From positions 1 through 39,667 of IMG/VR virus record IMGVR_UViG_2645727555_000028: a stretch of 39,667 nucleotides of DNA; one strand, 5' to 3'. The DNA is from a virus (lineage: Duplodnaviria > Heunggongvirae > Uroviricota > Caudoviricetes). Made by a program: the position numbers and the translations under genes. Below, one piece after another: positions 3,120 through 28,306 of the stretch (position 1 is its first letter; each line of letters opens with the position of its first letter). The notes below the pieces were generated by a model. The model searched no databases. It was not told the origin of the DNA and was given only the letters and a program-made list of their open reading frames with translations.

Positions 3120-3531
3120 GCCATTCAATATCTGGCGCACCGGAAGTATCGACCAGCTCCAGTGCGTCCAGATAATCCAGCCACAAATTATATTGCGCCA
3201 GTTCCTCACCTTTCAGACGACCAATCGCCGCTTTACCAGGCCATTGCTTACTGTTTATGTATTCGTTGACCTGATTAATCAATTGCTGCTTTTCCAGTTC
3301 GGCTGCGGCAATTTGTTCCTCATGAGTTGGCGGTGGAATATCAATCCATGCAGGCATTCCGTCGATGACACCTCTGTATTTTCCTTCTGGTGCTTCCTTC
3401 ATAAATTCGGCGGCAACAGTGTCGTCAATTTCGATTCCATCATCGGGCCATTCGCCGGATTCCTGATAAGCGATTTTAAGCTCCACAGGGAAAAACGCAT
3501 TTTTATCGGCACTGAAAATATATTTCTGCAT
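3091..3531 (-). CDS. tail fibre assembly protein (Tfa), expressed-orientation copy
   Basis: 146-aa ORF with Tfa-type C-terminus (..WLDYLDALELV..APDIEWPTPP), directly downstream of the tail-fibre gene. Confidence 0.75.
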   Translation of the reverse strand: MQKYIFSADKNAFFPVELKIAYQESGEWPDDGIEIDDTVAAEFMKEAPEGKYRGVIDGMPAWIDIPPPTHEEQIAAAELEKQQLINQVNEYINSKQWPGKAAIGRLKGEELAQYNLWLDYLDALELVDTSGAPDIEWPTPPAVQAR

Positions 3532-21719: not shown

Positions 21720-21971
21720 TTATTGTAACTTTTCAAGATAAGGAGCTATGTTGCTAACTTTTTTGTAGTTCAGATCATCCGGTAGTTGAACAGCAGGATT
21801 ATATACAACCCATATAGATTCAGACTTGCCATCTGAACCATCTGTGTTTTTACATGAGCGTAACTTGTAATGAATGATTCTATCTACGTCAGCGTACTCG
21901 GAGGTTGCATAAACTTCATATTTATTATCTCCATGGAAAAGGATAGTTTTAACTAATTTTGTAGATGACAT
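21720..21971 (-). CDS. hypothetical moron protein (83 aa)
   Basis: AT-rich ORF flanked by hairpin/T-run terminator-like elements (about 21640-21700), between the lysis cassette and the packaging genes. Confidence 0.45.
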   Translation of the reverse strand: MSSTKLVKTILFHGDNKYEVYATSEYADVDRIIHYKLRSCKNTDGSDGKSESIWVVYNPAVQLPDDLNYKKVSNIAPYLEKLQ

Positions 21972-23314: not shown

Positions 23315-23665
23315 TTACTCCTTAGAGCCACCAAACTTGTTACCGATTACTCTCATTGCAGCCCCACGAATAGCATCGACACCGATCAACCCAACGCCAC
23401 CACCAATGGCAACAGAAAGCGATTTAGGCCATCCGACATACTCAAGAGCGGATGCAAAAGTCAGCGTCAGAGCGCCGCAGAGCAAAATCTCGAGCGTTTT
23501 TCGCTTCCAGCCACCACCACCGCCAAAATAGGCAATGCGCAAGCCAGCCATAACGATCGACATAATTACTGCGCCCAGCGGTGTGTCTCCACGCCACCAG
23601 CTCTGTAACAATTCAAGTAAGTCAGACCAGGAATGAGGATCGTTATGCATTTTCATAATTCCCAC
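23315..23665 (-). CDS. putative holin
   Basis: 116 aa with hydrophobic segments, immediately upstream of the endolysin. Confidence 0.6.
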   Translation of the reverse strand: MGIMKMHNDPHSWSDLLELLQSWWRGDTPLGAVIMSIVMAGLRIAYFGGGGGWKRKTLEILLCGALTLTFASALEYVGWPKSLSVAIGGGVGLIGVDAIRGAAMRVIGNKFGGSKE

Positions 23666-23787
23666 CTCCGGTTATCGGAAGTGCAACGAGTGAAGGGAAA
23701 GAAGCTGGTTATAGCGCTGAGTCGCAAAAGTTGCGTAGTGCACAAAAAAGGCCGCCCACAGGCAGCCTCTTTTTATAATTCATTGAG

Positions 23788-24030
23788 TTAACAACATTTA
23801 AATGCTGGTGGTATAGAAGGTTTTTCACCAGAACGACAAGCCGGACACCATGACTGAACGATATGCCTTCCGTCTCCCATATCCCTATAACCAAAGTCTA
23901 TTGTTTTATAAAAAACGTGCACTCCGGCATCAGCAGAACATTTTGGGCAAGATTTATATTCAACGCCATCTTGTTCAACTTCTCGTGAATAACTTAATGA
24001 CTGCTCACAAACAGAACAACGCTCCACCAT
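23788..24030 (-). CDS. small zinc-ribbon protein (80 aa), moron between Q and lysis genes
   Basis: three CxxC pairs; AGGAGA RBS; AT-rich. Confidence 0.55.
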   Translation of the reverse strand: MVERCSVCEQSLSYSREVEQDGVEYKSCPKCSADAGVHVFYKTIDFGYRDMGDGRHIVQSWCPACRSGEKPSIPPAFKCC

Positions 24031-24318
24031 ATATGCTCTCCTGTTTTTGATAGAGATTTATGGGTAGCAATTCCATTCAAAAGAAACATTGAAGGGTGTC
24101 ACTTTTTCAAAATGAGCGTAGCTGGCTGCCAGTTTTTTGTACAACACACTTTAAGGAAGGAGAGCCTTAAAAACACAATTGACATCAATAAAAAACTGCT
24201 CGGTGGCGGTTTCTTGAAGATTATCAACGGTAGACACACAAAGCCCATCGTTAGGAGAATCCTAACCAGATTTTTTGAAAAATGCAAGAATCATGTCGCT
24301 ATCTTCGGCGAAAATTAT

Positions 24319-25071
24319 TTATCTCGTCACTTTTCTTAATTGCGCCTCAGCATATGCTTCTTCCTGCCAGCACTTTGTCACCAGTTTATCAATGACATCT
24401 GCATATCCTTTGTACCACTGATAATCCGTCAGGTCTGGTACCAGCTTCTGGACATGATGCCGCGCCAGTGTGGTTGGTAAACGGCTAAACCGGTTTCCAT
24501 TGCAACGCCCACAAATCTTATAAACAGGCGTGCCATGAAGCCGGGTCCTTTTTTCATCCAGGACAATACCTTTACCCTTACACCCTCTGCACGCTGTGCT
24601 GACTTCTCCCTTACCATGACAATGCTGACATAGTTCCTTCACCCACTCCTCCTTGATAACAGATTCCCCGCTTCTGGAGTGTTTCACCACTTCGCGCAAT
24701 ACATTATGAAATCCAGTACCAGCACAATGCTCACAACGAGCCTTACTTGCCGCAGACCTGGAATAATCAGCAAAGGCAAAATTCACAAGGTAAGAAATGA
24801 TCTGTAGCCGGGTTTCTTCACTCAATTTGTTCAATGTCAGGTTATCCAGTGCCATCGCGTAATTGAGCAGACCTTCAATCGCAAACTGAGGATCCTGAAC
24901 ACCAACTTTTGCCAGGAATAAGGCAAACCCAAGCGGTGCTTTCGACTGCACCATCCCCTGCGCAGCCATCACATCCGTAATCGTTAAACCACCCGAGCCT
25001 GTCGCCGGTGCGTCATCGCTCAGTTTTGGAGATTTTGGGGAGTAATATTTTGGTAAGGCTTCAAGGTTCAT
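24319..25071 (-). CDS. late-gene antitermination protein Q-like
   Basis: 250 aa with a Cys-rich zinc-binding region (CEHCAGTG...CQHCHGKG...CRGCKGKG); position just upstream of the lysis genes. Confidence 0.7.
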   Translation of the reverse strand: MNLEALPKYYSPKSPKLSDDAPATGSGGLTITDVMAAQGMVQSKAPLGFALFLAKVGVQDPQFAIEGLLNYAMALDNLTLNKLSEETRLQIISYLVNFAFADYSRSAASKARCEHCAGTGFHNVLREVVKHSRSGESVIKEEWVKELCQHCHGKGEVSTACRGCKGKGIVLDEKRTRLHGTPVYKICGRCNGNRFSRLPTTLARHHVQKLVPDLTDYQWYKGYADVIDKLVTKCWQEEAYAEAQLRKVTR

Positions 25072-27300: not shown

Positions 27301-27623
27301 ACTTTCAGGTCCCTCTCATGTAACCAGTGGGTTGCACGCAGCCTTGCGTTTTCCTCACCGGCAAGCAGTGCGCGGATAATCCCGACCGCCTCGCTGTCGT
27401 TGTCCTTCACCGCGGTATGTAGCGTTATCCCCCGGGCCACGCCACGCTTTATCGTGATGACGCCTTTTTTCTCCAGTGCGCGAAGATGCTCCACCGCTGC
27501 ATTCACTGAACGGTATCCCAGCATGGTTGCCACCTCCTGATTGGTTGGCGGGAAGCCACGTTCTTTCTGATAAGAAATCAGCATATCCAGCACCTGCTGC
27601 TGGCATTGAGTTAACGTCGTCAT
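27297..27623 (-). CDS. LexA-N-terminal-like winged-helix DNA-binding protein
   Basis: 108 aa; resembles the LexA DNA-binding domain only, no peptidase domain. Confidence 0.55.
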   Translation of the reverse strand: MTTLTQCQQQVLDMLISYQKERGFPPTNQEVATMLGYRSVNAAVEHLRALEKKGVITIKRGVARGITLHTAVKDNDSEAVGIIRALLAGEENARLRATHWLHERDLKV

Positions 27624-28306
27624 GCCGCCATCTCCCTGACCAGTTTTTCCGCCTGCTGGCGAACCTGCGCCAGAAACGCCTCACCACATGCCTCAAGTTC
27701 ATCGCGCCCGATGTAGCTGATTGCCGGTCCCTTCCAGGTCTTATCGAAAACAGCAATAGCACCAGCGAAGAAAGCGCCTGTCGGCACCTGCTTCTCATCC
27801 TTCGGGATAAACCAGGCAGGCAGTTCAAAACCAATACGCCCGCGAATAAAAGCAATATGGTCCGCATCTTCCGGCCACCACACTTCGCTGGTGGCAGCTT
27901 TGATCAGGAAAACATAGCGCCCGCCCTTATCACGCATGGCACTGGCATGTTTCATGATGTAACGCATGCCGGTGATGTATTGCCCCTCATGCTGACTGGC
28001 GCGGCTGTACGGGGGATTACCAAAGGCAGCACCTTTAAGCTCCGCAAGACGTTCTGACCAGTCATGCGCCAGCGCGTTATCTTCCGCCGTGTAATACGCG
28101 GCACATTTGGCGTTATCACCGTCAGTAAACAGATCCAGAACAAACGGGCCAAACAGGGTGTTAATTCCCCAGAAAATGTTGTCCGGCGTGCGCCACTGAT
28201 CGCCCACTTCCTTCAGTTCATGGGCTGGTTTGTTCCGCAGTTCCACCAGCGCCTGGCAATATTTATTACTCATTAAGCCCCCACGTAATTCCCTGACAGA
28301 TACCAC
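27620..28306 (-). CDS. phage DNA N6-adenine methyltransferase
   Basis: 228 aa with NPPY catalytic motif (FGNPPYS). Confidence 0.8.
   Translation of the reverse strand: MVSVRELRGGLMSNKYCQALVELRNKPAHELKEVGDQWRTPDNIFWGINTLFGPFVLDLFTDGDNAKCAAYYTAEDNALAHDWSERLAELKGAAFGNPPYSRASQHEGQYITGMRYIMKHASAMRDKGGRYVFLIKAATSEVWWPEDADHIAFIRGRIGFELPAWFIPKDEKQVPTGAFFAGAIAVFDKTWKGPAISYIGRDELEACGEAFLAQVRQQAEKLVREMAA

Follow-up and report, generated by a model that had tools for sequence, protein, structure and literature searches.

We analyzed a small gene in IMG/VR virus record IMGVR_UViG_2645727555_000028, whose whole stretch of 39,667 nucleotides (hereafter the window) holds the late region of a lambdoid E. coli prophage, transcribed from the minus strand. 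The gene is an open reading frame (ORF) of 80 amino acids (aa) that runs from ATG to TAA at 24030..23788 on the minus strand, between the antiterminator gene Q and the holin gene, and we refer to it and its cysteine-rich product as the zinc gene and the zinc protein. The gene neighborhoods of its relatives indicate that the zinc domain recurs as an accessory component of GATC/Dam-type restriction-modification systems and that mobile elements carry the domain alone. Moreover, the arrangement of promoter and terminators in the window suggests that the zinc gene probably lies in the constitutive leader transcript of the late promoter pR', and that it is probably expressed in lysogens too and not only on induction.

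Conservation of the zinc gene and its product

The product of the ORF (MVERCSVCEQ...AFKCC) is RefSeq protein WP_001306866.1, named 'hypothetical protein', and it matches phrog_7682, a PHROG of unknown function, over its full length (residues 1-80 on profile positions 1-80 of 80, E = 7.2e-60). The protein contains three CxxC pairs (C5/C8, C28/C31 and C62/C65) as well as C79 and C80, and an AGGAG ribosome-binding site (RBS) is located at 24042-24038, 7 nt 5' of the ATG. The GC content of the ORF is 0.407, compared with 0.477 in Q, 0.504 in the holin gene and 0.510 in the window, and that of the intergenic DNA is 0.378. The original prediction, which was made from the letters of the window, had described an AT-rich 80-aa ORF with three CxxC pairs and a strong RBS, and each of these features is borne out, with the gene on the minus strand.

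Among 20 homologous clusters, with identity down to 57%, the residues C5, C8, C28, C31 and H38 are invariant, C62, C65 and C79 are retained in at least 90% of the sequences, and the motif FGxRDMGDGRxIVQSWCPxCR is common to all clusters. The pairwise ratio of nonsynonymous to synonymous substitution rates (dN/dS) has a median of 0.11 (253 pairs). This low ratio and the invariant Cys and His residues show that selection acts on the protein, and the ORF is confirmed as a real gene, more than a chance ORF.

The DNA of the cassette (window 23740-24045, which includes the ORF, its RBS and the terminator behind it) is found in 24 of 5426 complete E. coli genomes. The ORF is annotated in 17 of these carriers and unannotated in the other 7 (H87, H88, H90, H93, H102, H103 and H105), where the 306-nt cassette is 98.4-100% identical to that in the annotated genomes. 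In a tblastn search of the GenBank phage genomes (50,697 records), no match was found for either enteric variant of the protein; unlike in these deposited phage genomes, the zinc protein is common in prophage-derived IMG/VR contigs.

The AlphaFold (AF2) model of the 80-aa protein is confident and compact, with a predicted local distance difference test (pLDDT) score of 84. The conserved residues suggest two zinc sites, a core ribbon in which C28/C31 pair with C62/C65 and a second site that would be formed by C5/C8 with H38/C79; the core ribbon is invariant over the whole superfamily. The original prediction had proposed a profile and structure search, which was run and returned phrog_7682 only. 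No family in Pfam, NCBIfam, PADLOC or PDB reached its threshold, and a fold search with the model gave no significant neighbor. Generic zinc-ribbon matches stay below their cut-offs, with 14.9 bits against a cut-off of 22 for the C4 zinc ribbon PF13453 (E = 0.017) and 19.5 bits against 31.3 for TIGR02605 (E = 7.8e-4), and PADLOC gave 0 families at E<=10. The zinc protein has two CxxC knuckles in common with generic C4 zinc ribbons (FmdB CxxC_CxxC_SSSS, TFIIB-type), but its family-specific core (KSCPxCS...FGxR...QSWCxxCR) and its second Cys/His site set it apart from them and define a distinct domain that is absent from Pfam.

Two other assignments were rejected. The zinc protein as a minimal or degenerate HNH (beta-beta-alpha-Me) nuclease is given hardly any chance, as the catalytic positions, namely the catalytic His, the structural Asn and the metal-binding His/Asn, are absent. 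A role as a lysis accessory protein, to which homology had been raised in the original prediction, was looked for in Pfam, PHROG and NCBIfam and no such homology was found; the protein has no transmembrane or other hydrophobic segment and no signal peptide, it stands beside several unrelated holin partners, and copies exist outside prophages.

The late promoter and the terminators around the zinc gene

At 32 nt past the Q stop, the window reads TTGCAT, 17 nt, TAGGAT, tctcct and AACGATGGG, compared with TTGACT, 17 nt, TAAATT, tgactc and AACGATGGG in lambda pR'. By this homology, the late promoter pR' is placed at 24259..24287 on the minus strand, with the -35 hexamer TTGCAT at 24287-24282, a 17-nt spacer and the -10 hexamer TAGGAT at 24264-24259. 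The sigma-dependent pause element AACGATGGG (24244..24252, minus) is the same 9-mer as in lambda pR' and has the same spacing, 6 nt past the -10, and transcription would start near 24252. About 125 further E. coli prophages with the same Q have only window 24226-24330 in common with it, and few reach 24179. This shared block contains the end of Q, the promoter and ~27 nt of the transcript, and it is conserved as a Q-utilization site would be expected to be.

The region past the promoter contains a degenerate homolog of the terminator tR' (aaaccgccaccgagcAgtttttt, 24190..24213, minus). In 14 related loci, the sequence aaaccgccaccgagcGgtttttt is located at about +40 to +63 (...gagcGg...) and forms a hairpin of -8.3 kcal/mol with a T6 tail; in the window and in the IMG/VR locus L023, an A at 24197 breaks a G-C pair, and the hairpin is weakened from -8.3 to -2.1 kcal/mol. 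Clean terminators are found at the tR' position in two other loci, L009 and L010. The 5' untranslated region (5'UTR) of the cassette (24031..24189, minus), which carries the AGGAG RBS and in which homology to the E7476 cassette starts near 24151, shows no terminator, and no hairpin with a T-run at <= -4 kcal/mol was found between +1 and the ATG (scored on L023, which has an identical UTR). Behind the zinc gene there is a strong intrinsic terminator, gaggctgcc-tgtg-ggcggcctt followed by T6, at 23744..23769 on the minus strand, with a hairpin of -12.3 kcal/mol. Because tR' is crippled and nothing else that resembles a terminator stands before the ORF, the 23769-23744 terminator appears to be the first effective one after pR' in this prophage.

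No promoter of its own was found for the zinc gene: from the tR' remnant to the ATG, a simple scan of the minus strand detected nothing like a sigma-70 site, and the alignment of the UTRs shows no conserved promoter-like hexamers. The scan is insensitive and its negatives are weak evidence, as it misses both the lambda-like pR' of the window (with 3/6 matches in the -35) and the strong terminator at 23769-23744, the latter because flanking A/T tracts extend the stem.

In lambda and Stx lysogens pR' is constitutive; the terminated leader builds up, as lambda 6S RNA does, and such a leader can have a function, as in the case of StxS (Sy et al. 2020, PMC7547250). In the window, polymerase starting from a constitutive lambda-type pR' near 24252 would meet only the crippled tR' and would transcribe the ORF until it stops at the 23769-23744 terminator, so that a basal amount of zinc protein would be made in the lysogen while the holin gene stays silent. 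After induction, Q-modified polymerase would read through this terminator, and the zinc gene would be highly expressed together with the lysis and structural genes. Expression in lysogens is thus probable, given a constitutive pR' and a gene that lies before the first effective terminator, and Q-dependent high expression on induction, which the original prediction expected, is plausible.

The zinc gene would resemble lambda 6S and StxS in being transcribed from a constitutive late promoter, here placed by homology, up to the first effective terminator before the late genes, and its leader would likewise be available in lysogens and join the late transcript after Q action. It differs from them in that the leader is ~510 nt long and holds a conserved protein gene, in place of a non-coding or Hfq-binding RNA, and in that a short terminator still precedes the zinc gene in most E. 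coli relatives. IsrK of Gifsy-1 is another product of a pR' leader.

The cassette across prophages

To compare the cassette among genomes, loci were sampled from IMG/VR (59) and species-representative genomes (77), in addition to homolog-encoding contigs. A GC-rich hairpin with a T-run is present 9-26 nt past the stop in 69 of 91 loci, including most enteric prophage loci, and the arms of its stem vary complementarily by lineage (GGCTGCC/GGCGGCC, GGCTCGC/GCGGGCC and GGCTCAC/GTGGGCC). The covariation score, taken in a fixed 7-bp register among terminators that differ in loop length, is 0.275, compared with 0.134 in shuffles (0/500 as high) and <=0.072 in slid registers. Such a conserved and covarying terminator, together with the functional pR' leaders already known (PMC7547250), would also fit an explanation in which the selected element is the terminator itself, as an insulator against read-through from pR' or a cargo promoter, or a leader small RNA (sRNA) like StxS or 6S, with the ORF being incidental. 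There are also Rfam matches to Hfq-binding sRNA models over the terminator (E = 0.15 and 0.79), but these are weak and sub-threshold, with scores far below the gathering scores. This explanation is very improbable in view of the dN/dS of 0.11 and the invariant Cys and His residues, and conservation of the domain extends across phyla and to fusion proteins, settings that lack any such RNA context.

Where the flank of an enteric prophage locus is long enough, a lysis cassette almost always starts 85-1300 nt downstream, made up of an endolysin gene, an Rz-like gene and genes for one or two small membrane proteins. At least three holin Pfam families (3_1, 8 with 3_7, and 2_1) are found beside the zinc cassette, and the Q upstream belongs to one of two families, lambda (PF03589) or Q21/933W (PF06530). 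The locus is a three-part cassette, composed of a 5'UTR of ~150 nt with a strong RBS, the two-zinc 80-aa gene and a strong terminator, and the late operon opens with this cassette, which is inserted between pR' and the holin gene. It is also evident that the gene occupies the interval between Q (24319-25071) and the holin gene (23315-23656) in which Stx phages carry stx, as the original prediction had stated.

The hosts of the Q21/933W type include Citrobacter, Enterobacter, Kosakonia, Klebsiella-like bacteria and others. In loci of this type (L002-L066, the Stx2a_WGPS2 locus L071 and the SfII locus L072), variable cargo that is always antisense to late transcription is inserted between the Q stop and the block CTAACGCGTACGCAAAAAC. 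The cargo includes an M78 peptidase with a helix-turn-helix (HTH), GmrSD with HEPN, RelA_SpoT with NA37, PDC-S20/PifA-like and PDC-S42 genes. A conserved block, CTAACGCGTACGCAAAAACTATCGTAAnCTGTTAAGAGTGGTC, follows the cargo ~150 nt 5' of the ATG of the zinc gene. Shigella phage SfII and the Stx1a and Stx2a phages have the same block, likewise past antisense cargo, with a canonical terminator ~85 nt beyond it and then either S, or a small gene, a methyltransferase, tRNAs and stx; in SfII and Stx2a_WGPS2 the zinc gene is absent. The block is likely to be the pR' and Q-utilization region of the Q21 subtype, an assignment made from comparative position only, and the simple promoter scan gives no confirmation of a promoter in it. 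Of 23 distinct Q21-type zinc-gene loci, 19 have no terminator between this block and the ATG, and the zinc gene thus appears to replace the usual short leader and to supply the terminator.

Of 33 distinct upstream regions, taken as the 160 nt before the zinc gene in L002-L066 and covering divergent lineages, 21 have a GATC at -70, give or take 1-3 nt. It is missing from the leader of the window's lineage, and elsewhere it may reflect shared ancestry or a regulatory site.

Other small ORFs take the place of the zinc gene in E. coli relatives whose Q and pR' are the same, and the position after pR'/tR' seems to accommodate a small first late gene quite generally. At the first position past pR'/tR', L010 has a 59-aa zinc ribbon with CxxxC...CPYC (3258-3437, minus), followed by two terminators, and L011 has an 85-aa coiled-coil protein (3186-3443, minus). 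The Stx2a phage locus L071 has a 65-aa winged-helix-like protein (3204-3401, plus), followed by a terminator.

The original prediction regarded the gene as a moron, and this holds in part. The composition of the zinc gene is atypical, it has its own terminator and it is replaced by other small ORFs in relatives; furthermore, SfII shows the pR' block, the terminator and S with no gene between them, as the moron concept (Hendrix/Juhala) requires of an insertion. A promoter of its own, the remaining mark of a moron, was not found. The view of the gene as variable cargo does not extend to the Q21/933W type, in which the cargo lies upstream, and the zinc gene and its terminator form the constant flank beside the holin gene. 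Similarly, the comparison with Stx genes and other morons between Q and S shows likeness in the interval occupied, the atypical composition and the variability among close relatives, and the zinc gene should likewise need Q for high expression; gene order and pR' both agree with the placement of late-operon cargo under Q control, as for Stx. The zinc gene differs from these in that no promoter of its own was found and in that the variable cargo of Q21-type phages is upstream and antisense to it. The zinc protein, without signal peptide or transmembrane segment, is not a toxin like Stx.

The zinc domain in restriction-modification operons

In a profile search of 1.84 billion representatives, 277 relatives were found at E<=1e-3, and the zinc gene is therefore no orphan but a member of a widespread conserved family. 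The family is already catalogued but uncharacterized, and literature searches on zinc-ribbon genes, in the Q-holin interval or within DpnII systems, gave nothing relevant. Many relatives, in Gammaproteobacteria, Firmicutes and other groups, stand alone as proteins of 55-100 aa, and there are fusions of four kinds: zinc-middle-HNH (~350 aa), zinc-HNH (203 aa), zinc-middle-NOV_C, and DGQHR/DndB-like proteins with a C-terminal zinc domain. In the nuclease fusions the zinc domain forms the N-terminus of an HNH or a NOV_C/PD-(D/E)xK nuclease.

Of 36 distinct Firmicutes loci, 26 have a 59-aa short form no more than 70 nt past a D12 Dam methyltransferase gene, with genes for PDDEXK_11, DpnII and an N6_N4 methyltransferase behind it. 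Fusions occur in operons with the order Dam, fusion, MutH-like, PDDEXK_11 and N6_N4 methyltransferase, or N6_N4 methyltransferase, Dam, PDDEXK_11 and fusion, and also in shorter arrangements (DpnII, fusion; Dam, fusion). For the fusion proteins P0083, P0089, P0119 and P0141, a D12 methyltransferase gene and a GATC nuclease gene are adjacent and co-directional. MT-A70, N6_N4 or D12 methyltransferase genes also adjoin the zinc gene in Proteus, Xenorhabdus, Sodalis, Tolumonas and Kosakonia prophages, and an unannotated short-form ORF of 61-74 aa is present on mobilizable E. coli plasmids of 5.7-8.8 kb. The prophage of the window itself encodes a phage Dam (PF05869), a further link to GATC methylation. 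The consistency of these gene neighborhoods argues for the zinc domain as a recurrent accessory part of GATC/Dam-type systems. The original statement that the function is unknown can thus be narrowed to a component of GATC/Dam-type restriction-modification operons.

Two further observations concern these contexts. A five-gene GATC system recurs in L127, L118, L138 and ~25 other Firmicutes loci, as well as in L152-L156, in the order D12 Dam (with an N-terminal HTH), zinc protein or zinc-nuclease fusion, PDDEXK_11, DpnII or MutH-like, and N6_N4 methyltransferase, so that one operon holds two methyltransferases and two or three nucleases. On the plasmids, the short forms lie at 2971-3156 in L150 (NC_019092.1) and 2932-3156 in L151 (NZ_CP091680.1), and one plasmid short form is directly 3' of a gene pair encoding an HTH and an ImmA/IrrE protein.

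Possible roles of the zinc protein

The role that we favor, tentatively and at somewhat less than an even chance, is that of a DNA-recognition or adaptor module that modulates GATC-linked restriction and provides restriction alleviation for the mobile element. The zinc domain would sense GATC or its adenine-methylation status, and the free protein of a prophage or plasmid would most likely act by competition, either at DNA sites or for a nuclease or methyltransferase partner, with restriction alleviation as the outcome. A recognition or adaptor role is suggested because the zinc domain is the sole extra domain in the 203-aa nuclease fusion and because the free form sits between methyltransferase and nuclease genes. 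The Lar and Ral proteins for restriction alleviation are also small prophage proteins, some of them with zinc ribbons, that modulate host restriction-modification, which is the activity proposed here. However, the zinc protein shows no significant similarity to the Lar family (phrog_6422, E = 0.7, no passing stretch). Lar and Ral are early genes that act on the type I enzyme EcoKI, whereas the zinc gene lies in the late leader and its relatives are in type II GATC systems.

The fusion proteins, with their layout of zinc domain, middle domain and HNH, resemble McrA-like modular nucleases, in which an N-terminal DNA reader is joined to a C-terminal HNH. Their HNH part is weakly McrA-like (PDB 6GHC, E = 0.077; PADLOC mREase_IV), and for the middle domain a profile search of PDB gave nothing beyond this weak match to the McrA HNH. 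In contrast to McrA, the fusions are encoded in operons together with Dam-type methyltransferases and with DpnII or MutH-like nucleases, and for this reason they are unlikely to be solitary methyl-directed type IV enzymes; the protein of the window has no nuclease domain.

Several points weigh against a restriction-modulating protein expressed in the lysogen. Promoter pR' and its start are assigned by homology only and are not flagged by the simple promoter scan, and a modest terminator is kept before the ORF in most E. coli relatives, so that lysogenic expression may be specific to the variant in the window. Transcription, translation, zinc binding and DNA binding are all predicted from sequence, and neither the libraries nor the fold search gave a match that supports a biochemical activity of the zinc protein. 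Its isoelectric point (pI) of 6.05 is near neutral, whereas DNA binders are typically basic. In the window the ORF adjoins neither a methyltransferase nor a nuclease gene; the sole methyltransferase there is the PF05869 Dam, 3.6 kb upstream, and lambdoid phages often carry a Dam gene in any case. Chromosomal copies in Photorhabdus and Pseudoxanthomonas have neither restriction-modification nor lysis neighbors. Furthermore, the direction of action, for or against restriction, is not fixed by the evidence.

If the action is for restriction, the zinc protein could serve in a defense that protects the lysogen, in which the pR'-expressed protein recognizes incoming under-methylated GATC DNA and either blocks it or recruits a resident nuclease. 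Candidates for the nuclease are host MutH, the prophage DUF968/HNH protein and the terminase-associated HNH, and host Dam with such a nuclease would make up a restriction system. This would agree with the location of the zinc gene in a Q-independent leader in most lineages and next to a hotspot of defense cargo, and with the presence of the domain elsewhere within defense systems (restriction-modification operons, nuclease fusions and a MutH-like neighbor). However, the prophages have no linked effector gene, no PADLOC model matches the zinc protein, the short form on small plasmids, also without a linked effector, fits either role, and the same evidence fits anti-restriction equally well. We regard defense as rather unlikely, though it ranks only slightly below restriction alleviation, and roles as a controller, as RNA only or as an HNH nuclease are less likely.

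The zinc gene is also directly upstream of genes that would be lethal if expressed early, in both the restriction-modification and the prophage context. It could in this respect be compared with the C proteins, whose small genes are directly upstream of, and co-transcribed with, a restriction nuclease gene, and a controller-like regulator would bind DNA or RNA and gate the lethal downstream gene, be it a nuclease gene or the holin and lysis genes. The conserved 5'UTR with its GATC at -70 in 21 of 33 upstream regions could be taken as its target, yet the leader of the window's lineage has no GATC. C proteins are HTH dimers. The zinc protein shows no HTH motif; its domain is of the Cys/His zinc type and is also found fused to nucleases, which suits a targeting domain better than a transcription factor, and a methyltransferase gene precedes it in the same operon. 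Moreover, the holins found with the gene come from at least three unrelated families and the Q proteins from two, and the chromosomal and plasmid copies have no lethal downstream gene. A controller-like role is thus improbable, and we retain the modulation of GATC-linked restriction as the preferred role.

Other features of the window

The gene order in the window is RusA, KilA-N, DUF968, Q, the zinc ORF, holin, a lambda-R-like endolysin, Rz/Rz1, HNH and terminase. The antiterminator Q (24319..25071, minus, 250 aa) belongs to the lambda-Q family (PF03589, E = 6.5e-53; PDB Q-lambda 7UBM, E = 7e-38) and has extra DnaJ-type zinc fingers. It is lambda-like at both ends and 43 aa longer, and its extra segment carries repeated DnaJ-type CxxCxGxG motifs (PF00684, E = 3e-7). 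The first gene of the lysis cassette is a lambda-family holin S with a Met-Lys-Met dual start (23315..23656, minus; PF05106, E = 5e-28, and RefSeq). The lambda-R-like endolysin after it has no Pfam match and is named glycoside hydrolase family 24 in RefSeq, and Rz follows. The phage-type Dam adenine methyltransferase (27620-28306, minus; PF05869, E = 1e-45) is part of the early-right operon. Between Rz and the HNH/terminase genes, an 83-aa ORF (window 21720-21971, minus) lies in an island with a GC content of 0.35; it is hypothetical in RefSeq and has no Pfam match, and it is a second moron candidate. No tRNA genes like those of Stx phages were found in the window.

Implications

A more far-reaching explanation, to which we give only a small chance, is that the zinc domain is an undescribed reader of GATC or adenine methylation, acting as the subunit for targeting or as an adaptor in a DpnII/Dam 'super' restriction-modification system with several nucleases. 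It would have been captured as a free protein by lambdoid prophages and small plasmids, and the prophage copies, placed in the constitutive leader between pR' and the terminator, would reprogram Dam-linked functions of the host (Dam, MutH or the restriction of unmethylated DNA) in the lysogen. If this is true, the zinc gene would be the first protein-coding counterpart of lambda 6S RNA and StxS, and the leader of a late promoter could carry a protein gene, which would constitute a route of lysogenic conversion that needs no extra promoter and is insulated from the lysis genes. It would also mean that an uncatalogued zinc domain is a recurrent and unstudied part of the very common GATC/Dam-type operons and of their second nucleases, and that its free copies in prophages and small plasmids are candidate restriction modulators of a new class, present in Dam-positive enterobacteria.

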